Program-made: the position numbers and the translations under genes
The notes under the pieces: model-generated
Database searches by the model: none
Seen by the model: only the letters and a program-made list of their open reading frames with translations
What the model was told of the DNA's origin: nothing
Shown here: one piece after another, positions 51,703 through 64,000 of the stretch
Layout of the letters: each line of letters opens with the position of its first letter
How positions within the stretch are numbered: the first letter of the stretch is position 1
Assembly (NCBI GenBank): GCA_963667675.1
Contig: OY763929.1
Location: forward strand, 1,721,399 to 1,785,398
DNA length: 64,000 nucleotides
Reading direction: 5' to 3'
Source of the DNA: Dehalococcoidia bacterium
Lineage (GTDB): Bacteria > Chloroflexota > Dehalococcoidia > Lucifugimonadales > UBA3495

Positions 51703-51814
51703 CATTCAAGACAGTTGCTGAGCCTGTCCTGAGGCTCTCGAAGGGCGCACGGCGCACCAGCCATGCCTAACCCATCCTTCCGCTCCCCCAACCCAGCATC
51801 CCCGCCCCCAACCC

Positions 51815-51981
51815 GTCTTTCCCGCGCAGGCGGGAATCTAAAGTCCCTCGCCACGATACAGGTCATGCCCCCGCATACCCCGCACCCAACCCGTCCTTCC
51901 CACGCACGCAAGACTATTACCTAGGCCAGAGCCGAGGCTGTCCGCTCGCCCTGAGGGAAATCGAAGGGCGCACGTACAGCC
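51815..51981. repeat. REP-like cluster (families B and C)
   Basis: GTCTTTCCCGCGCAGGCGGGAATCT at 51815-51839; family C at 51936-51981. Confidence 0.85.
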
Positions 51982-54394: not shown

Positions 54395-54628
54395 GTCATT
54401 CCCCGAGCGCAGCCGAGGAATCTAAAAACCTTCGCTACCACCCAGGTCTTGTCCTCACACCCTCCACCCGTCATTCCCGTGCAGACGGGAATCTAAAATC
54501 CCCCGCTGCCACCCAGTTCATGCTCCCTCACATACCACGCACCCAACCCGTCCTTGCCCAGCACCAAGACTAATCTATGGCCTGCGTCTAGGCTGTCCGT
54601 TCGCCCTGAGGCTCTCGAAGGGCGAACC
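54395..54628. repeat. REP-like cluster (families A, B, C)
   Basis: A 54395-54423, B 54470-54494, C 54591-54628. Confidence 0.85.
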
Positions 54629-55667: not shown

Positions 55668-55881
55668 TGGTCGATACCTCCTACCTGCCGCCGGGAAATC
55701 CCAGCAAAACCCCGTCACGCCCAAGCTCCCTGGACCCGCCGCAGTATACCGTCGATAGACTTGACATAAAAGAATCGGCCGGAGTCCGCACCCACATGCT
55801 CGCCGATTCGGTCCCTGCCCTTGGAGACCTTTGCACATCCGTGATTCTCCCGCGCCAAGACCATTACATAGGTCCGGCCGA

Positions 55882-55927
55882 GGCTGTCCGTTCGTCCTGA
55901 GGGAAATCGAAGGGGGAACGGACAGCC
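55882..55927. repeat. REP-like palindrome, family C
   Basis: GGCTGTCCGTTCGTCCT-GAGGGAAATCGA-AGGGGGAACGGACAGCC. Confidence 0.9.
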
Positions 55928-56074
55928 GGGGTTACGCAAAGGTCTCCGCTTGCGTGGCAATCATCGCAGATGGTACAAAGTCCGTCACGGGACCGCCGCC
56001 CCGTGGTAAGCTAGCGGGCGGTTCGGCTTTACCCATCTAACCGAAAATGGACGGCTAATCAGGGAGTAAAAGCG

Positions 56075-56842
56075 ATGGCAGGTATGTTGGAAGGCAAGAT
56101 TTCGCTGGTCACCGGCGCAGCGTCGGGCATTGGCCGAGCTACGTCGCTGGTCATGTCCCGCGAGGGCGCCACGGTGGTGGTGTCCGACATCGACGCTGCC
56201 GGCGCCGAGGAAACTCTGCGCTCCATCCAGGCCGCTGGCGGCGACGGAATGTTCTTCCGCGCCGATGTATCGCGTTCAGACGACGTGGCCTCGCTGGTCG
56301 AGAAAGTAGTGTCGGCTTACGGACGGCTGGACTGTGCCTTCAACAACGCCGGCGTAGAGGGCCAAATGACCGAACGTCTCCACGAGTACCCGAAAGACGA
56401 TTGGGATCGGGTCATCGAAATCAACCTCACGGGCGTGTGGCTCTGCATGAAGCACGAAATTCCGCAGATGCTGCACCAGGGCGGCGGCGCTATCGTCAAC
56501 ACTGCGTCAGCTGGAGGGTTGATCGGCGCCAGGCGGATGGCGGCCTATATCGCCAGCAAGCACGCGGTGGTGGGGCTGTCCAAGACCGCCGCGCTGGAAT
56601 ACGCCCTCGACGGCATCCGGGTCAACGCTGTCTGCCCCGGCATGACCGACACGCCCTTGATGGGCCGCCTCCTCACCGACCGCGAGCAGGATTCCGAGGC
56701 TGACATTCCGTCCCGCCAACCCATCGGCAGGCTGGGAAAGCCGGAAGAAATAGCCGAATCCGTGACCTGGCTCTGCTCCGACGCGGCATCTTTCGTCACC
56801 GGCCTGGCCATGTCAGTCGACGGCGGCCTCACCGCCCAGTAA
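56075..56842 (+). CDS. SDR family oxidoreductase
   Basis: TGAASGIG, NNAG, YIASK, VNAVCPG. Confidence 0.95.
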   Translation: MAGMLEGKISLVTGAASGIGRATSLVMSREGATVVVSDIDAAGAEETLRSIQAAGGDGMFFRADVSRSDDVASLVEKVVSAYGRLDCAFNNAGVEGQMTERLHEYPKDDWDRVIEINLTGVWLCMKHEIPQMLHQGGGAIVNTASAGGLIGARRMAAYIASKHAVVGLSKTAALEYALDGIRVNAVCPGMTDTPLMGRLLTDREQDSEADIPSRQPIGRLGKPEEIAESVTWLCSDAASFVTGLAMSVDGGLTAQ

Positions 56843-56887
56843 CCTACTCAACCCATCCGCCCCCTCATCTTCGGCCGTCCGCTCCTC

Positions 56888-57151
56888 CATCTTCTTCACC
56901 CACTCGCCCCCTCACCTTCTTCACCCGTTCGCCCTTTCATCTTCTTCACCCGTTCGCCCTGAGGCTCTCGAAGGGCGCCAATAACCAACTGTAGGGGTAG
57001 GCCTTGTGCCTACCCTCCACTTTCCGCCCATCACCTCGGCATCCCACGCCCGTCCCTAGCCATCCCTGTGCTGCGCCCCCGTCATTTCAGTGCCTTTCCC
57101 TTGCCATTCCAGTGCCTTTCCCCTGTCATTCCGAGCTCAGCCGAGGAATCT
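56888..57151. repeat. Repeat-rich spacer: ~25-bp tandem units, family C, GTAG-type palindrome, family A
   Basis: CTTCTTCACCCGTTCGCCC-like unit x3; C at 56950-56977; GTAGGGGTAGGC-CTTGT-GCCTACCCT at 56991-57016; A at 57125-57151. Confidence 0.8.
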
Positions 57152-57242
57152 AAAAGCCCATGCCCCCAACTCCCTGACTGAACCTTGGACCAACCCAAGC
57201 TCACGCCCCATGCCCATCTGTTCGCCTCCGGTAAGCCGTAAT

Positions 57243-58109
57243 TTACTGCGGAATATCCCGAATGGTTTCTGGAGCTAAGAGTGTGAGCCAATTCTGGACG
57301 GTCTCCATGTCCCGTCGCGCTTCAGTCATGCTTAGGCCGAATGTGCCGGCTAGCGCCCGTTGGGCTACTGTGACATCGCTCGTACGATTCAGTTGAATCA
57401 CCGTGTTGGCGAAAGGCGTCGCCAGCAAGCAGGTAGTGGCCCATGCCCTGACACCCTCGTTAGAGAGGCTTGAAGGCATCATAAGAGCCTCGAGATCCAT
57501 CCGCGCGGCTTGTTGCTCATCATCGGAAGCTATGTCATGTTCTCTCCCTCCATAGCTGAGCTCCAAGTGAATGGGGTAGCGGGTTTTAGGTCTCCAAGTG
57601 TCGAGCCGTGGTTGTTGGGCAAGTACGGCTTTGTCAATGGGCGCGAGCATCTTAGGAATGGCTTCCCATCTCAGAAATTCATCGTCGCCGATTTCGCGGG
57701 CGTGAGCTAGCAGTTCCTGTTGGAATGCCAATGAATCGAAATCGTCGCCTGCCTGACACAGGATCTCGAGATTGGGTTGCGGTGCCCAACCCATCGCGGA
57801 AGAAGTGAGGTTCGCAGACCCTACCAGGATAGTGTCATCAATGCGGTAGTATTTAGCGTGCAAAGTTGGGTGCAATAGGAACGAACCGCCGAAATCGTTG
57901 ACGAGCTTCCGGCATTCTGTGTCGGACGCACCCGTGGCGAGGTCGTGTGGAATCCACCTAGTGACGCAAATGAGGGATGCGTCAACATGCAGGGCTGCCA
58001 GAACTTTGGAAAGAGCCTGAGCCTTGATGTACGGAGCCGCGATGAAGAGGCTCGCGGCGCTTGAGCAAAGGCGTGTCAACAAGTCGCCGGGACTATCCCC
58101 GATAGTCAA
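57243..58109 (-). CDS. Phospholipase D-family (single HKD) predicted nuclease
   Basis: IAAPYI, LHAKYYRIDD..VGSANLT; TTG start overlaps stop of the upstream ATPase. Confidence 0.88.
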   Translation of the reverse strand: MTIGDSPGDLLTRLCSSAASLFIAAPYIKAQALSKVLAALHVDASLICVTRWIPHDLATGASDTECRKLVNDFGGSFLLHPTLHAKYYRIDDTILVGSANLTSSAMGWAPQPNLEILCQAGDDFDSLAFQQELLAHAREIGDDEFLRWEAIPKMLAPIDKAVLAQQPRLDTWRPKTRYPIHLELSYGGREHDIASDDEQQAARMDLEALMMPSSLSNEGVRAWATTCLLATPFANTVIQLNRTSDVTVAQRALAGTFGLSMTEARRDMETVQNWLTLLAPETIRDIPQ

Positions 58110-59971
58110 CCGTCTCTCTCGCGCAGTTGGTTGATAACCTTGTCCACCTGCCGCCCCCAGTTCATGGCTATGTCCTGTATTCGCGTTCGTTCGTCTCTGG
58201 ACTCGGTTTGGTCTTCCATGCGCGCCCAGGATGATAACAGGAGTCGCAGCGCAACAATCGCTTGGAAAGCAGGGTCGTCCTCGTCGTCCTCGTCGCTGAG
58301 TTGATCTTCTACATGACTTATCAAGTCGTAAATTGGATGGTCCGTATTCAGATTGATGTGCAAGACCCCTTGGTTCGAGCGGACGTTGAACATCTGGTAG
58401 CCGTCAAGCTGTTGAGGGTTGAATTGGTATGACAGATTGTCCTGCACCAACGCTCTAGCCAGTGCCCGTGCCTCGCCCTCTGGCTGTCCGGATGCCATGA
58501 ACTGTTCGGTAAGCCCATCCATCCGTTCCTGTGTCCCAATCTCTTCTCGGTCAATATCAGTGGGCGTCTTCTTTTCGGCACCAGATTCGATGGCTTCCTT
58601 GTCAGCATTGGTCTGGGTTCTGACTGCCTCGGCTTCTGGAGTCTTCTTCCCGCCGCCGGTACCATCAGACTTTCGCTTCTGAGCGAACATCTGCCTAATT
58701 TGGTCCATCATTGCCCGAGTCTGATCCCGGATTTCCCCGACAATGGTGTAAATCGTATCATCGTCGATTCCCATCTCATCTAAGACGACTTGTCGCGGGC
58801 GATCATCTCGGGCAAGGGTCTTGGCAGCCTGTGTGAAGTTCGCAACCATCTGCTTATTGTGGTCTACGCCAAACAACTCGTCGCAACTCCGACGGAAACT
58901 CACTTCGCAGCCCCACCAACGGTTCTGTGGGTTTTCGGCACTCCCACCCTCTCTCAAGAATGCGTCCTCAAGAACGATCTCTCGATCCTCTCGGACGACC
59001 GAAACCCCAATATTGTGCCTAGCGTGCCGACCTCTCGGTGTCCCACCGGGATTCTGCCTAACAGTTTCAGTCCTTAGTGCTTCGGGCTTCACAATTGAGT
59101 ACTTGACGCTAACCGTCTCTTCTCGGCCTCCGACATTAACTGGGTAGTACCTGATTTCTCCCCATTGCTCAAACATGGGTGTGTTGTTCCACGGCTCTTC
59201 AGGGACAGACGTTGGACTCATGAGGTAAATCGGGTCGTTGGCAACGACACTGGCCTCGTATTCGGCCTCACCAGGCCGATTGGCCAAAAAGGATGCGGTT
59301 CGTATACGTGTGATGCCAGCGTCTATGAAATGCCTGTGAATGCGCCCGACTTCACGAGACGCGTTGTCTATAATCGTTCGTCCTGTTCTCCATTGGACCT
59401 TGTCTAGGTCGCCGCCCCAAACGACAAGTGTGCCTGACCGATGTTGATAAATCTCGTCGCTTCCGGCCATCACCCACCTATCCGGTATCGGTGTGTCTCG
59501 GTCAGGAATAGGGACTTGATGATTGCCGCGCTCAATCGCTTTTGCATCAAGGCTGGAATGCCACACCGAATCCAGACCATCCTGCCAAGTCCACACATCC
59601 ACTTTGGTGCACTGTGACATGGAAGAGGTGGGAAGGCCCATGCCGTATTTGCCGATTCCCCTTGTAGAATTGTGCCTTGTCCCTCCACCGAACTTAAGGG
59701 CGTCTAGGAGGGTTCTTGCATCCATGCCACTGCCGTTGTCTAAGACCGCTAGCTCAGAAATTCTTCGACGGGTACGAGACTGAACCATTTCCGGTTGCTC
59801 CATGCATAGTAATTCCACACGCTCGGAGTTAGCCTCTACCGAATTGTCTATGAGTTCAGCGATAGCATAGGCCGTGTTGTGATAGCGACTGTCTCTGATG
59901 GCGCGTATGGTGAAGCTGCCTGGAAACAGGCTACGGTCCGCATCCTTTAATTCGTCGAATTGTTCGACCAT
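58106..59971 (-). CDS. MORC-like GHKL ATPase
   Basis: AIAELIDNS, DNGSGM, GIGKYGMGL, GTLV; WWGCEVSF...DELFGV.HNKQ; GGAGG RBS. Confidence 0.88.
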   Translation of the reverse strand: MVEQFDELKDADRSLFPGSFTIRAIRDSRYHNTAYAIAELIDNSVEANSERVELLCMEQPEMVQSRTRRRISELAVLDNGSGMDARTLLDALKFGGGTRHNSTRGIGKYGMGLPTSSMSQCTKVDVWTWQDGLDSVWHSSLDAKAIERGNHQVPIPDRDTPIPDRWVMAGSDEIYQHRSGTLVVWGGDLDKVQWRTGRTIIDNASREVGRIHRHFIDAGITRIRTASFLANRPGEAEYEASVVANDPIYLMSPTSVPEEPWNNTPMFEQWGEIRYYPVNVGGREETVSVKYSIVKPEALRTETVRQNPGGTPRGRHARHNIGVSVVREDREIVLEDAFLREGGSAENPQNRWWGCEVSFRRSCDELFGVDHNKQMVANFTQAAKTLARDDRPRQVVLDEMGIDDDTIYTIVGEIRDQTRAMMDQIRQMFAQKRKSDGTGGGKKTPEAEAVRTQTNADKEAIESGAEKKTPTDIDREEIGTQERMDGLTEQFMASGQPEGEARALARALVQDNLSYQFNPQQLDGYQMFNVRSNQGVLHINLNTDHPIYDLISHVEDQLSDEDDEDDPAFQAIVALRLLLSSWARMEDQTESRDERTRIQDIAMNWGRQVDKVINQLRERDG

Positions 59972-61209
59972 AGGTCCTCCCAGTTCGTAAAGGCATCAGT
60001 TACTGACCCGAAACCAGGAAGGTTTGTATCAGCAACGGTCATGATCTCTGCAGTTCGGTTTCCGCCTGCCCTAGGGCCGCGCATGGCTCTACCTGCCATT
60101 TGCGAGTAGAGCACCAGCGATGTCGTTGGCCGAGCAATGATGACACAGCGGGTACGAGGAGCGTCAAAGCCAGCGGTAAGCACGCCGTAGTTGAACATCA
60201 CCATGTGTGCTCTGCCATCGCTCCGGAACCTATCGATTATCGCTCGACGGTCGTCTATATTGGTGCTGGCGGTAACTACATAACTTGTCACCCCTTGGCT
60301 TTGAAGGAGCCGGTTGCATTCGACTGCACTTTCAACCGAGGGACAGAATACGATAGTTCGAGGGTGACGGGTCGCTGCCTCCCTGGCCAGTTCCACGATC
60401 TTGAATGTACGAGCATCGTTACGCCCTATGGTATCGAGATCGTTCTTGCTATAGTCCGTGCCGGATTCGGGATCCTTTACCCCAATTTCAGACTCGAAAC
60501 TGATCGGCACAAACCGCGGATCCGCCAAATATTGGTTCTGAATCAAATATGTGACTGGGCTATCGTGTCCTCTCGGGTCTATCGAAACCTTGGTTTGATT
60601 GAACATCTCGGCAAGTCTATAGTCAGCGTCAGTCAATCTAGCCGTTCGCCCGGGCGTAGCCGTGAGGCCGAGTAAGGGAGGACGTGTGCTACACAGTTGC
60701 TCAGTCACGAAGGCATAAGTCTCAGCTACCGCCTGATGGGCTTCATCAAAGATAGCCGCTGCGGTTTGGTAAGCGAGGTGGGCGAGTAGCGTGTGATCAG
60801 AGTCGGAAGCTGCACGCAGCTTGGCTAGCCCAGTCACCAGGAAGCCAGACGGAAGATTGCGCAAGTCTAAGGAGCGATTGCCCCAGTATCGATGAACGTG
60901 GACCTCCCGCAAGCCGAGATGCATCCAAGCCCTAGAGAGCTCGTCCGCCGCCTGTTCACACAGTTCCTCCGTGGAAGCTAGCCATACGATAGTAGCACTG
61001 TCGGATTCGACCTCGTTCAGTAGGCGGCAGGCTGCGTGTGATGCTATCCTCGTCTTGCCAGCGCCAGTAGGAAGATGAACTACGGCTCGACGTTCGGGAG
61101 ATGCTAGAGCCCGAAAGATGTCGCGTAGGACTTGGCGCTGATGCGGATACAGCGAGTAGTTGGGTTCGAGCCTTTCCTCAGTGGCTTCAGACACCACAGA
61201 GACCCTCAC
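59947..61209 (-). CDS. Superfamily 2 DEAD/DEAH (Res-like) helicase; start may be GTG 61194 or 61197
   Basis: LYPHQ, LPTGAGKT, DEAH, TATP, LTAGFDAP, QMAGRAMR. Confidence 0.92.
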   Translation of the reverse strand: MRVSVVSEATEERLEPNYSLYPHQRQVLRDIFRALASPERRAVVHLPTGAGKTRIASHAACRLLNEVESDSATIVWLASTEELCEQAADELSRAWMHLGLREVHVHRYWGNRSLDLRNLPSGFLVTGLAKLRAASDSDHTLLAHLAYQTAAAIFDEAHQAVAETYAFVTEQLCSTRPPLLGLTATPGRTARLTDADYRLAEMFNQTKVSIDPRGHDSPVTYLIQNQYLADPRFVPISFESEIGVKDPESGTDYSKNDLDTIGRNDARTFKIVELAREAATRHPRTIVFCPSVESAVECNRLLQSQGVTSYVVTASTNIDDRRAIIDRFRSDGRAHMVMFNYGVLTAGFDAPRTRCVIIARPTTSLVLYSQMAGRAMRGPRAGGNRTAEIMTVADTNLPGFGSVTDAFTNWEDLWSNNSTN

Positions 61210-62053
61210 ACTCCTCGTTGAAGTGGTTGATGGCGTCCGGGTCTTCTTCCATCTCAGCTATGACGGTGGCCAGAGGGCGACGCGCGGAGTGAAGATATGG
61301 GCGGCCTTTCAGCAACTTTCTCACAGGATTAGTCTTGCTGTTTCGAAGCCACCGATCATATTTTACCGCCTCGTAGTAACTTTCCGGTTCAGACTGTTTC
61401 AACTCCAGCCAATGTTCGTCGGAACGATATGGGCATATAACACAGGCTGAGCGAGGCAACCACCGGTCAGGGTACTGAGAGGAAAACCATTCGGCACAAT
61501 CGCGTCTTGCCATTCCGAGGTCTACAAGGGGCCAGCGATGCTCTACCCACGGTTCCCTGCTCGGTTTCATTCGACCGACTTCATCCAGCGAGATTCCGAG
61601 CCACATCTCTACTTGGTAGTGCTTTGGAAATGGCCTGCCGGGTTGACCGCCTGCCAGCTTCCTAATCCGCCTGTAAATTGGGGCGATCTTGTAGTGGTTG
61701 GTGCACTGTCGCCGCAGCATCCCCTTTTTCCCATTTTCGTCGACTAGGTAAAAAGGGACATCAACAAAACTGTGGCCCGACGTCGTTAGGCCCTTTCGGA
61801 GGTTTGATTTGATATCACCGCTTGAAACCCGTATCAGTGGATAATCAAGTTGCCCTTCCAGCCATGCGAGATGGTCATAGACGTAATCAGGCTCCCAACC
61901 GGTATCGGCAAATATGGCCGCGTCTGGTTTGGGATAACCTAGCTCGATCAATCGAGGGTCCGAGCGTGACAACAGAAGTGCTAGAACAGAACTCTGCACG
62001 CCTGCACCCAAGCTGAGTGCGCGATACGCTACGGTGCTTGCCTGAGTGCTCAT
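61187..62053 (-). CDS. PAPS-reductase-like / PP-loop adenine nucleotide alpha-hydrolase protein
   Basis: SLGAGVQSS, IFADTGWEP, RQCT..YKI.PI, GISLDE, WPL, SACVICPY, C-terminal ECEGLCGV; AAGGAG RBS. Confidence 0.78.
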   Translation of the reverse strand: MSTQASTVAYRALSLGAGVQSSVLALLLSRSDPRLIELGYPKPDAAIFADTGWEPDYVYDHLAWLEGQLDYPLIRVSSGDIKSNLRKGLTTSGHSFVDVPFYLVDENGKKGMLRRQCTNHYKIAPIYRRIRKLAGGQPGRPFPKHYQVEMWLGISLDEVGRMKPSREPWVEHRWPLVDLGMARRDCAEWFSSQYPDRWLPRSACVICPYRSDEHWLELKQSEPESYYEAVKYDRWLRNSKTNPVRKLLKGRPYLHSARRPLATVIAEMEEDPDAINHFNEECEGLCGV

Positions 62054-62579
62054 TCGGACTCCTTTCCCACGATGCCTTGGGCCATAGCCAACAATCGATT
62101 CAATAGTGCTACCCTGGCCAAATTTACCCAAGGCAGTTGTACTTAACCCTGTCTAACAACATCCGCGCCTCCCCAAAAGTTGTTATGAGATTGTACCCTA
62201 AGTCACCACCTTACTGACACATCCCCACTATTAAGGTCCACCCCCGCTACTGCCATTCCCCCCTTGTCCACCCCCGCAACCTCCCCATATCATAAATCCA
62301 GGTCAGGCCCGGCCCGTCGCCGGACCAAATCAAAACCAGCCACTGAGACCCGTGATGTTCCTTGTCCAAAAACCGCTCCACATCCAATAGCTCTAACCCT
62401 ACCCCTCCTCAGACTAATCCTCGCGAACGGGCGGGAATGAAAAGAAATGAGAGGGGAGCTAAGAATCCCAGCCTCTCCCGTCCCCAGCAAACCGCTCTCC
62501 CCCTTGGTAAGGGGGATAAGGTATAATAAACCGCAGCGCCGAAATTCTCTTGGATTCCAGACTTGCCGGCGATCGCTGA

Positions 62580-63824
62580 ATGAAAATACTGGCCACAAAA
62601 CCCATCATGGCGGTCCTCGCCGCGGCGCTCCTCTCGTCCCTCGCCTTCCTGCCCGCCTGTGGAGGGGATGATGCTCCCGGCCCCCTCAAGGTCGGCCTGA
62701 TGCTCAATCTCAGCGAACCCTCGCCCACCGGACGCGCCCATGAGAGGCAACTGGCCTTCCAATTGGCCGTAATGCACGTCAACGACGCCGGCGGTGTCTT
62801 TGGCCGCCCCGTGGAAATTGCAGTCGCAGACTCCACCTTGGACCCAGAAACCGCTGCCGCCGAGGCTCGACGCTTGATTGAAGAAGAAGGCGTCCACGCC
62901 ATCGTCGGCCCCAGCAGCAGCGCCAACTCCATGGTCGTCGCCCGTAAGGTTGCTGCTCCTTCGGGAATACCCGTCATCAGCCCGTCGGCCACTTCCCCGT
63001 TGCTGTCGGGCATAGACGATAACGACTTCTTCTTTCGCACTGCCCTCTCCGACACTACCCAAGGCGCCGTGCTGGCCCAGCTGACCCGGAATCTCGGCTT
63101 TGAGGACGTGAGAGTTGTCTACCGGGATGACGCTTGGGGAAAGGGCCTGGCCGACGCTTTTGACGCCGCTTGGACCGGCGAGAGCAAGTCAGTCGCCGTT
63201 GACCCTCTACAGTCCACGTTTCTCCCCCAACTCAAGGAATCCGCCGGCGGCAACCCTCAAGCCTTGATATTGATTACTTTCGAGTCTGAAGCCGAGATAA
63301 TTCTTCGCGAGTCCGTTGAAAACGGCCTATACGACCAGTTCATTTTTGGAGACGCCTCCAAGAGCCCCGAACTGCCCGAGAAAATAGGCGCCGACCACTT
63401 GGCAGGCATGTATGGGACTGCTGGCTCAACTCCCCCCGACAGCCTGTCCTACCGTGCTTGGAACGACGCCTATACAGCCCAACACGGACAGTTGCCCGGC
63501 TTTGCCTACGTCAGGGAGACCTACGATGCCGCCATTGCCATTGCCCTGGCGGCCCAGTCCGCCGGCAGCGTCGATGGCGCTGCCATCCGGGACAACCTGC
63601 GTTCCGTGGGCTCCGCTCCCGGCGAAGAGTCCATAGCCGGACCCGAGGGGGTGGCCTACGCCCTCAGCGCCCTTGCCGACGGGAAAGACGTGGACTACCA
63701 GGGGGCCGCCGTGACCTTGGACTGGGACGAGAACGGAGACATTACCCGGGGCCACATCGGCGTGTGGCGTTTCACCAAAGACGGCGACATCGAAGACTTG
63801 GTGGCCATACCATTCGGCTTCTAA
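62580..63824 (+). CDS. LivJ/K-like ABC transporter substrate-binding lipoprotein
   Basis: Lipobox LPAC, VNDAGGV.GRP, ISPSATSP, FFFRT..SD..QG, YDA; TATAAT at 62522-62527. Confidence 0.9.
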   Translation: MKILATKPIMAVLAAALLSSLAFLPACGGDDAPGPLKVGLMLNLSEPSPTGRAHERQLAFQLAVMHVNDAGGVFGRPVEIAVADSTLDPETAAAEARRLIEEEGVHAIVGPSSSANSMVVARKVAAPSGIPVISPSATSPLLSGIDDNDFFFRTALSDTTQGAVLAQLTRNLGFEDVRVVYRDDAWGKGLADAFDAAWTGESKSVAVDPLQSTFLPQLKESAGGNPQALILITFESEAEIILRESVENGLYDQFIFGDASKSPELPEKIGADHLAGMYGTAGSTPPDSLSYRAWNDAYTAQHGQLPGFAYVRETYDAAIAIALAAQSAGSVDGAAIRDNLRSVGSAPGEESIAGPEGVAYALSALADGKDVDYQGAAVTLDWDENGDITRGHIGVWRFTKDGDIEDLVAIPFGF

Positions 63825-64000
63825 CCGCCCCCCGTCCATCTCCAATCTTCAACTGCTCTCATTTGTCTTGAGACCGCCCGTAAGCGCCGCCCACTGTCAT
63901 TTACCCCCTTGCGCCTACCCCACCCGCCCTCTATCATATCTACAGGCAGCCAAAATACGTTGCCCAAACCTATCACCGGCCACTGAGGCCCCGATGTCCC

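Follow-up and report, generated by a model that had tools for sequence, protein, structure and literature searches.

A recurrent four-gene cassette pairing a distantly SspD-like protein with a helicase, a MORC-like ATPase and a PLD-family nuclease: a candidate phosphorothioate-type defence system

Introduction

Can a single protein with the fold of phosphoadenosine phosphosulfate (PAPS) reductases, followed by a helicase, a MORC-like ATPase and a PLD-family nuclease, make up a DNA-modification defence system, and to which known systems would it be related? The question is raised by four genes at positions 57243–62053 of a 64,000-nt stretch of the genome of a Dehalococcoidia bacterium (GCA_963667675.1, contig OY763929.1, 1,721,399–1,785,398), which was analysed as a whole and is called the window below. 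An earlier note, made from the sequence alone, had read this cassette as a writer joined to a helicase–MORC–nuclease restriction module acting through a non-methyl DNA mark, and as lying outside known systems. Here we report that the four genes recur in the same order in several phyla, and that the trio formed by genes 2–4 (for which we use the shorthand HMP, helicase–MORC–PLD) is linked across phyla to phosphorothioate (PT) genes.

Results

The four-gene order recurs across phyla

The list of open reading frames (ORFs) of the window contains four head-to-tail overlapping ORFs on the minus strand (57243–58109, 58106–59971, 59947–61209 and 61187–62131), in agreement with the earlier description. 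Adjacent genes overlap by 23 nt (61187–61209), 25 nt (59947–59971) and 4 nt (58106–58109), and a purine-rich stretch lies ahead of every start codon. The true start of gene 1 is most likely the ATG at 62053 rather than the ORF end at 62131, because GGAG is found 8 nt upstream of it and homologs are 288–289 aa long; this start would give 288 aa. The genes are listed below.

Gene 1 (P0001): 61187..62053, minus strand, 288 aa; PP-loop/PAPS-reductase-fold protein of the phrog_424 family, distantly SspD-like, predicted sulfur-transfer 'writer'
Gene 2 (P0002): 59947..61209, minus strand, 420 aa; SF2 helicase/translocase with ResIII and Helicase_C domains
Gene 3 (P0003): 58106..59971, minus strand, 621 aa; MORC-like GHKL ATPase, HATPase_c_3
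Gene 4 (P0004): 57243..58109, minus strand, 288 aa; single-HKD PLD-family nuclease with a helical C-terminal domain

When one genome per species was scanned, 80 loci were obtained, 37 with a gene-1 identity of 62–82% and 43 with an identity of 43–50%. In the first group, tblastn detected all four genes in unchanged order at 32 of the 37 loci. Three of the remaining five are cut by contig ends (L004, L007 and L026) and two are decayed (L001 and L027); the helicase of L002 has an internal stop. With this order preserved at 32 of 37 related loci, the arrangement is not due to chance, and the synteny that had been proposed as a check is present in several phyla. The hosts come from at least nine phyla and include Chloroflexota, Latescibacterota, Rhodothermaceae, Entotheonella, Acidobacteria, Gemmatimonadetes, Alphaproteobacteria and Binatia, several of these lineages being typical of marine sponge symbionts. 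Clustering of the ORFs in the flanks gave no fifth attached gene, and no other family was present in more than seven loci. Across the 37 loci gene 1 is the best conserved (62–82% identity), with values of 38–83% for MORC and 37–67% for PLD.

In phylogenies, which were quick maximum-likelihood trees, very short branches link cassettes from different phyla (L011 from Rhodothermaceae with L017 from Latescibacterota, and L027 from Tepidiformaceae with L030 from Gemmatimonadota). Such near-identical copies in different phyla point to recent horizontal transfer. The distribution is sporadic, with 5 of 401 genomes in a sample of the phylum (G000 included) and 4 of 31 among relatives; a MORC homolog was found in 3 of 30 relatives of the window genome, and none of the copies is orthologous. 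The low GC content described below, the presence of MORC in only 3 of 30 relatives and the near-identical copies across phyla are the grounds on which the cassette looks horizontally acquired.

The flanks of 18 minimal (four-gene) cassettes, comprising 109 ORFs of at least 200 aa, were searched for defence genes. Clear defence neighbours were present at 7 of the 18 loci (type II restriction-modification (R-M), type IIG/DrmMI-like, DrmD, PDC-S37/Hhe, HEC-05 and PD-Lambda-5_B), and five further loci gave only weak or generic PADLOC matches. The defence-island context of minimal cassettes thus gives moderate backing to a role in defence. In an alphaproteobacterial locus (L034:4093–6612), the minimal cassette has an 839-aa ORF 1.4 kb upstream, the C-terminal half of which matches SspA/DndA cysteine desulfurases (176 bits).

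The trio is a neighbour of phosphorothioate genes in other genomes

In locus L086, from a genome of the window's genus (G003), genes for SspB, SspC, SspD, helicase, MORC and PLD follow one another on one strand, with a divergent cysteine desulfurase gene adjoining. The PADLOC scores of the first three products were 338, 1270 and 451 bits respectively. P0002 is 44% identical to the helicase encoded downstream of canonical sspBCD in this locus. A tblastn search of 72,556 plasmids with MORC gave 16 records, of which 11 were examined (H1–H4 and H6–H12; H5 is from the same species as H6, and H13–H16 are weak or partial). Canonical SspD was found at most 7–9 kb from MORC in 9 of these 11 plasmid loci: those of Hymenobacter, Roseobacter litoralis pROLI83, Trichormus variabilis ATCC 29413 plasmid A, Mesorhizobium onobrychidis, Aminobacter MSH1, Planktothrix agardhii, Pannonibacter phragmitetus, Geminocystis NIES-3709 and Pleomorphomonas SM30. 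HMP stands directly downstream of canonical sspBCD in L086, L096 and L098, and lies near it in other plasmids. The helicases beside canonical sspBCD (L086:9273–10976 and plasmids; ~540 aa) have an extra N-terminal region of ~140–150 aa that is absent from the 420-aa helicases of minimal cassettes. In Agrobacterium pAtCFBP7129b (L095) and Aminobacter pUSP2 (L093) a 359-aa hypothetical protein is encoded after MORC in place of PLD, followed in L095 by two hypothetical genes and then by a gene with an FtsK/SpoIIIE domain.

The same association was seen when 400 other genomes, drawn evenly from the phylum, were searched for MORC at a threshold of E ≤ 1e-30. MORC was present in four of them, and an SspD or SspD-like gene adjoined it in all four: two are minimal cassettes, one combines HMP with sspA-B-C-D, and one contains sspBCD, an SspE-like gene and MORC. 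In L188 (G301:C6:56500–76499), genes for SspB, SspC, SspD, an SspE-like protein and MORC stand in a row, and no helicase or PLD was detected there with the trio queries.

In the 43 loci of 43–50% identity, the gene-1-like domain usually makes up the C-terminal half of a ~540-aa protein that has DUF6339 (PADLOC PDC-M33C) as its N-terminal half. These DUF6339-fused SspD-like proteins (44–50% identity to gene 1) are preceded by PDC-M33A and PDC-M33B, and the three-gene module occurs in ~30 Dehalococcoidia-type genomes (L038–L080, for example L038:4464–8819). Interchangeable modules follow the fused proteins: SspE (786 bits), GmrSD-like, HEC-05, DndB, PbeA/PbeC or, in five of the 43 loci (L044, L058, L062, L067 and L069), HMP. 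From its gene content and position the M33A–M33B–DUF6339/SspD-like module looks like an undescribed PT-writer module; in the literature searched, no paper mentioning DUF6339 or PDC-M33 was found. A third arrangement, consisting of genes for a short SspD-like protein, a small GIY-YIG protein and a DndB-family protein, is complete in L065 (7965–10469), L068, L072, L076 and L077. In L078 the small middle gene, which was not scanned, clusters with the others, and L075 is without GIY-YIG.

The N-terminus of PDC-M33A (L038:4464–6332) has a GHKL-like N-box, G1 and G2, with E37, N41, D44, D115, G120, G145, G148 and G150 invariant in 30 homologs. A relationship of PDC-M33A to MORC was considered and set aside, as BLASTP was not significant, the hhalign probability was 4.6% and no Pfam HATPase was found in five members; the motifs are only a hint.

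HMP is therefore linked to PT genes across phyla. Whereas the trio had been placed outside known systems, it is in fact a recurrent neighbour of canonical sspBCD in L086, in plasmids and in the phylum sample. The exchange of modules behind SspD and SspD-like genes indicates that HMP behaves as one of several restriction partners of PT-type writers.

Gene 1 belongs to a phage and plasmid family set apart from SspD

P0001 scored 16.9 bits against Pfam PF01507 (PAPS_reduct), under the cut-off of 22.5, and 54 bits (E 4e-15) against PADLOC SspD, where the canonical SspD of L086 scores 451 bits; there was no PADLOC match to DndC. The best description was given by PHROG phrog_424 ('phosphoadenosine phosphosulfate reductase'), which matched residues 11–288 with 127.8 bits (E 1.1e-36). 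Relatives are numerous: 7558 of 8000 scored candidates had E ≤ 1e-3, and the best 120 of them are 73–88% identical and mostly 285–295 aa long.

The AlphaFold2 model of P0001 (pLDDT 89.7) has a PP-loop fold. Its best Foldseek matches in the PDB were [4Fe-4S] LarE, PAPS reductases, TtuA and NcsA (E ~1e-4, TM 0.34–0.41), and a search of PDB sequences with the gene-1 profile gave nothing at E ≤ 1. Five cysteines (C117, C204, C207, C282 and C286) are invariant in an alignment of 39 sequences. C117 and C204-x-x-C207 align with cysteines of canonical SspD, and to judge from the alignment and fold the cysteines of gene 1 are placed like those of Fe-S sulfur transferases. C282 and C286 lie within the final 10–13 residues, for which flexibility is predicted. 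The PP-loop reads GAGVQS, where the canonical sequence is SGGxDS. This variant loop and the cysteine-bearing tail presumably resemble those of CysH-type enzymes. Prediction of a complex between the helicase and the gene-1 protein gave a score of 0.00, which decides neither for nor against their association.

In the trees, canonical SspD is set off from all other gene-1 relatives by a long, fully supported branch. Within the non-SspD clade, stand-alone phage (P23-77 and HTVC034P) and plasmid proteins are basal. The gene-1 proteins of minimal cassettes form one group (support 100), with the M33-fused domains as its sister (support 94), so that the minimal forms are not nested among the fused ones. 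In a larger tree the M33 loci that bear HMP are scattered over at least three places, which is what module swapping would produce.

Many members of the family are carried by mobile elements. P0001 had 46 matches in a phage collection (30–41% identity) and 172 in plasmids (39–43%), which extend to residue 288 and thus include the C-terminal cysteine pair. IMG/VR contains at least 551 stretches with a relative, the best 80 of which are 43–49% identical; none of these 80 loci had a helicase, MORC, PLD, M33A/B, SspB/C/E or DndB. The homolog stands alone among replication genes in Thermus phage P23-77 (17 kb) and in Pelagibacter phage HTVC034P, and in Roseobacter denitrificans pTB1 a large ParB-family gene precedes it. 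Its neighbours in viruses and plasmids are replication or leading-region genes. These stand-alone contexts suggest that the gene-1 family normally works without dedicated partners. In the Mesorhizobium phage-plasmid MesoLjLa5 (L104:5485–6804), a P0001-like sequence (43%) is contained in an ORF that is annotated as DNA cytosine methyltransferase and adjoins primase genes; the ORF may be a fusion of two DNA-modifying domains.

The first gene was thus correctly described as PAPS-reductase-like, but it is not a DndC or SspD proper: it belongs to the phrog_424 family of phages and plasmids, in a clade separate from that of SspD. Prophage 'SspD' matches of the same weak strength have been reported, with a call for their verification (PMC12429752).

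The helicase, MORC and PLD proteins have intact motifs

P0002 contains ResIII and Helicase_C domains, and its Walker A motif (PTGAGKT) and DEAH box are both invariant in the alignment of homologs. Its best PADLOC match was to the helicase part of PbeA (65 bits). In P0003, which scored 76 bits against Pfam HATPase_c_3, the N-box and G1/G2 box residues E39, N43, D78, G82, G110 and G112 are invariant in 31 sequences. Human MORC2 was the only sequence match in the PDB (E 3e-4), and the MORC family counts 437 representative clusters at E ≤ 1e-30, or 2892 when the threshold is E ≤ 1e-3.

P0004 scored 24.7 bits against Pfam PLDc_2, just under the cut-off of 27. The residues of its HxK...GSxN motif (H84, K86, G97, S98 and N100) are invariant in 25 sequences. 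The AlphaFold2 model (pLDDT 92.1) consists of a nuclease part (residues ~1–125) and a helical domain (~126–288). The best Foldseek matches were SauUSI, NucT, the NgoAVII R-protein, Nuc, Zucchini and BfiI; the C-terminal helical domain had no convincing Foldseek match among PLD restriction enzymes. The catalytic motifs, which the earlier note had judged intact, are thus conserved throughout, with the key residues invariant in the helicase, GHKL, HKD and cysteine alignments.

The host genome lacks known partners of gene 1

The host genome is a single 2.6-Mb contig, 94% complete, with one copy of gene 1. No methyltransferase domain was found in the four cassette proteins with Pfam, PADLOC or NCBIfam, and the cassette has no DndB, SspB, SspC or SspE, as had been noted. 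By tblastn the genome contained no SspB, SspC, PDC-M33A/B, DUF6339, DndB, PbeA or PbeC. A PbeC/DndD-like query gave no match in the genome, DndE not having been searched for. With an SspE query the only match was a distant GmrSD-like gene elsewhere, and there was no PADLOC SspE match in the cassette. Two cysteine desulfurase homologs are encoded elsewhere in the genome, 35% and 29% identical to a plasmid SspA-like protein. Given the absence of Ssp, Dnd and Pbe partners, gene 1 must act with housekeeping factors, with its three operon partners, or with both.

Comparison with known systems

No PADLOC (v2.0.0) model fits the trio, for which the best scores were PbeA 65, MzaB 43 and ZacB 21 bits, beside SspD 54 bits for gene 1; the absence of a system-level match that had been anticipated was thus confirmed. 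The nearest parallel is with Ssp systems (SspABCD with SspE or SspFGH), in which, as in the cassette, a PAPS-reductase-fold protein stands upstream of a swappable restriction module, and in which the cysteine desulfurase can be supplied in trans, as iscS (PMC8092258). They differ in that SspB (DUF4007) and SspC are absent from the window and from the genome, and in that gene 1 shares just 26% identity with SspD and falls in another clade. HMP has no relationship to SspE, and it is not SspFGH, which was ruled out from its published description as containing a Walker A protein and an FtsK-like protein; SspFGH was not searched for directly. The C-terminal SspD-like domain of PADLOC PDC-M33 is the nearest cellular relative of gene 1 (44–50%), and HMP follows it in five loci, but PDC-M33A, PDC-M33B and DUF6339 are absent from the window and genome. 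With Dnd (DndABCDE–FGH) the cassette has no DndC match in common. With DISARM it has only weak DrmC matches of PLD (≤20 bits), and no DrmA or DrmB.

The trio has a precedent in prokaryotic MORC R-M operons, described as laterally spread combinations of a MORC GHKL ATPase, a superfamily II helicase and nucleases including HKD (Iyer, Abhiman and Aravind 2008, PMC2292703). The same adjacency of MORC-like GHKL, superfamily II helicase and HKD is found in the cassette. Those operons carry DNA methylases, whereas the cassette has a PAPS-reductase-fold protein in their stead; PAPS, DndC and phosphorothio are terms absent from that paper, and neither MORC nor GHKL is mentioned in a 2024 reappraisal of the Dnd machinery. 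SauUSI, NgoAVII/CglI (R with helicase) and the BfiI nuclease domain have the single-HKD fold in common with P0004, and their pairing with an SF2 motor is alike. Unlike the cassette, they are without a MORC ATPase or PAPS-reductase-fold partner, and read sequence or methylated DNA through other domains. The likeness of phrog_424 to gene 1 is full-length; the viral and plasmid genes differ in standing alone, whereas the cassette gene heads an operon with a nuclease machine.

According to a 2025 review (PMC12707154), the only restriction branches of PT systems are dndFGH/sspFGH, sspE and pbeABCD. In another survey, 2,211 of 2,678 sspBCD clusters were without a known partner (PMC8092258). A 2026 paper on BREX type 4 (PMC12914056) takes a PAPS-reductase domain together with a P-loop NTPase in one neighbourhood as the mark of a candidate PT writer, and gene 1 and the helicase are such a pair. 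That paper analysed SspD neighbourhoods, and the word 'helicase' is absent from its main text. In the literature searched, which excluded supplements and subscription papers, we found no description of the cassette or of HMP with ssp genes; places that could hold such a neighbourhood are Xiong et al. 2020 (Nat Microbiol) and the neighbourhood tables of PMC12914056 and PMC10853773. PT modification-restriction is itself known, and what appears to be new here is HMP as a PT-type restriction trio and the minimal, phage-type writer.

Composition and borders of the segment

The cassette lies in a segment of lower GC content (0.53–0.56 over 57000–62500, compared with 0.60–0.64 on either side), and the GC skew, -0.2 to -0.42 in the flanks, is -0.13 to +0.06 within it. 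The composition profile therefore agrees with the earlier note, which had reported lower GC and loss of the host skew. It is bordered by two spacers:

Downstream spacer: 56843..57242; contains 25-nt tandem repeats at 56857–56956
Upstream spacer: 62054..62579; presumed promoter region of the cassette

The spacers had been called repeat-rich. A 25-nt unit is indeed repeated head to tail at 56857–56956 and a 15-nt pair is present at 62236–62280, but no direct or inverted repeats that could represent att sites or target duplications were found bracketing the island. A consensus scan of 62054–62579 found no promoter-like site on the minus strand, and in the consensus promoter and terminator scan the signal was not above that expected from shuffled sequence.

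The immediate neighbours are housekeeping genes, for an SDR protein (56075–56842, plus strand) and an ABC-type periplasmic binding protein (62580–63824, plus strand); an SPFH/NfeD pair and an aldo-keto reductase are further housekeeping neighbours in the window. The window is syntenic with the same-genus genome G002 up to ~57045, where similarity stops, and this is the approximate edge of the island. The closest relative, G004, is without the cassette and without the binding-protein gene, and its synteny with the window picks up at 63893. Only one border of the island is approximately placed by these comparisons. At the island's position in G004, directly after the SDR gene, there is a 333-aa ORF (L099:9590–10591), which from its first residues looks like an insertion sequence (IS) transposase or a helix-turn-helix protein. 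The site after the SDR gene may be an insertion hotspot. Three intergenic segments of the window (51811–51977, 54404–54527 and 55879–55931) match several other intergenic places in same-genus L099 with 71–91% identity, and look like a dispersed repeat family of this lineage.

Discussion

The cassette probably belongs among the defence cassettes of the PT/Ssp world. More specifically, we favour, with a probability of roughly 0.55, the reading that it is a horizontally acquired, self-sufficient PT-type defence system in which gene 1 writes a mark and HMP restricts. This reading starts from the gene content, the intact motifs, the folds, the synteny, the linkage of HMP to ssp genes, the absence of SspB and SspC from the genome and the horizontal spread; from these we infer a mark written by gene 1, the nature of that mark (PT), restriction by HMP, and one of two possible polarities for HMP (attack on unmarked DNA or activation by the mark). 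The positions of HMP beside sspBCD, and of SspD-like genes before SspE, DndB and Pbe modules, support the original proposal of a writer with a restriction module acting through a non-methyl mark, in which modification and defence are both still inferred.

In the mechanism that we propose, gene 1 would take sulfur from a housekeeping cysteine desulfurase of the IscS/SufS type and would mark host DNA, most likely with PT, without SspB or SspC. The helicase (a P-loop NTPase), MORC or both would provide the ATP-driven DNA handling that DndD or SspC provides elsewhere. HMP would be an ATP-dependent restriction module, like the NTP-dependent enzymes with split PLD and helicase subunits (NgoAVII/CglI, SauUSI), and a MORC dimer might clamp the DNA. 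The module would translocate on DNA and cut it according to its mark status, either when the DNA is unmarked, in the manner of DndFGH and SspFGH, or when the mark switches the module on, in the manner of SspE. That no intact copy has lost gene 1 is compatible with either polarity.

Several observations weigh against this reading. P0001 had no NCBIfam match, its 26% identity to canonical SspD extends over 232 aa, and with the variant PP-loop GAGVQS an ATP-pyrophosphatase chemistry like that of DndC and SspD is not assured. The phage family is usually annotated as sulfate assimilation and read as a metabolic gene (PMC8879888). The PT writers characterised so far all need an ATPase and a DNA-binding or nicking partner (PMC12707154), and none of the known ATPase or nicking partners is present with the cassette. 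In the window the cassette is flanked by housekeeping genes and lies in no defence island. The linkage to SspD also has exceptions. The Cyanobacterium HL-69 plasmid has only DndB and a cysteine desulfurase, with no SspD near MORC; Agrobacterium pAtCFBP7129b has no SspD, DndB or desulfurase near MORC; and the relative G013 (L087, G013:C1:66000–84000) has only MORC and a PLD fragment, with no SspD nearby. At the helicase position in L087 there are Mu-transposase-like and IstB-like genes, with a homolog of Tiamat TmtA (376 bits) adjoining, and the locus appears to have been disrupted by an IS21-type insertion.

The points concerning gene 1 also lead to the main rival view, that of a defence cassette in which its product is not a PT writer and instead makes another mark, sulfur- or adenylate-dependent, or acts as a regulatory, sensor or immunity subunit keeping the nuclease off self DNA. 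The variant PP-loop and low identity, the long branch that separates its clade from canonical SspD, the absence here of SspB/SspC-type partners and the lack of an established function for the phage and plasmid members would all fit. However, relatives of gene 1 are found directly upstream of the PT-linked SspE, DndB and Pbe modules, the cysteines common to SspD and Fe-S sulfur transferases are invariant, and the other partners of HMP are bona fide sspBCD; on balance we regard this view as doubtful. A role outside immunity is less probable still, and we consider it unlikely. The cassette might serve DNA repair, chromosome compaction, or the maintenance or transfer of mobile elements, with the 'PAPS reductase' acting in sulfur or cofactor metabolism, given that the best NCBIfam match of the helicase is to the repair helicase RadD (102 bits, far under the cut-off of 720), that eukaryotic MORCs compact chromatin and that phrog_424 is categorised as an auxiliary metabolic gene. 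Such a role sits poorly with a sporadic, horizontally transferred distribution, with an overlapping four-gene operon that includes a nuclease, with the tight linkage of HMP to ssp, SspE, DndB and Pbe genes, and with the R-M, DISARM-like or Hhe-like neighbours at 7 of the 18 loci.

It is also very unlikely that the cassette is a decaying, non-working remnant of a full sspBCD–HMP or PDC-M33–HMP operon that has lost SspB/SspC or M33A/B. Longer versions do exist (L086, L058, L062, L067 and L069), and some minimal loci have decayed (L001 and L027, and L002 with its helicase stop). Against this, 32 copies, spread over several phyla, are intact with every frame open, conservation is highest in gene 1, and the catalytic residues are invariant. 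Origin as a remnant of a Dnd-type cluster, which the earlier note had named as a possible refutation, is likewise at odds with the tree, in which the minimal cassettes form a clade of their own (support 100), apart from canonical SspD and sister to the M33-fused forms.

The favoured reading, a PT-type system with gene 1 as writer and HMP as its restriction arm, has a bolder extension, which we put forward only tentatively. Here the phrog_424-type 'PAPS reductase' would be a single-subunit DNA PT writer, the cassette would be a complete one-gene-writer system with a MORC-powered arm that reads the mark, and the copies carried by viruses and plasmids would be mimics serving counter-defence by marking the DNA of their carriers. 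HMP would on this reading also be a further, unnamed restriction branch of PT-based immunity.

The position of HMP after ssp genes in Cyanobacteria, Alphaproteobacteria, Bacteroidota and Chloroflexota would explain part of the sspBCD clusters that are without a partner, and the link would give prokaryotic MORC ATPases a concrete, testable role. HMP can be tested in cultivable carriers of canonical ssp genes, among them Trichormus variabilis ATCC 29413 (plasmid A), Roseobacter litoralis (pROLI83) and Pannonibacter phragmitetus. The minimal cassette, for its part, poses the question of whether DNA can be marked by one PAPS-reductase-fold enzyme in the absence of the ATPase and nicking partners regarded as essential. 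Should it do so, hundreds of viral genes annotated as 'PAPS reductase' or 'CysH' would need to be re-read as genes of DNA modification or counter-defence, not of metabolism.

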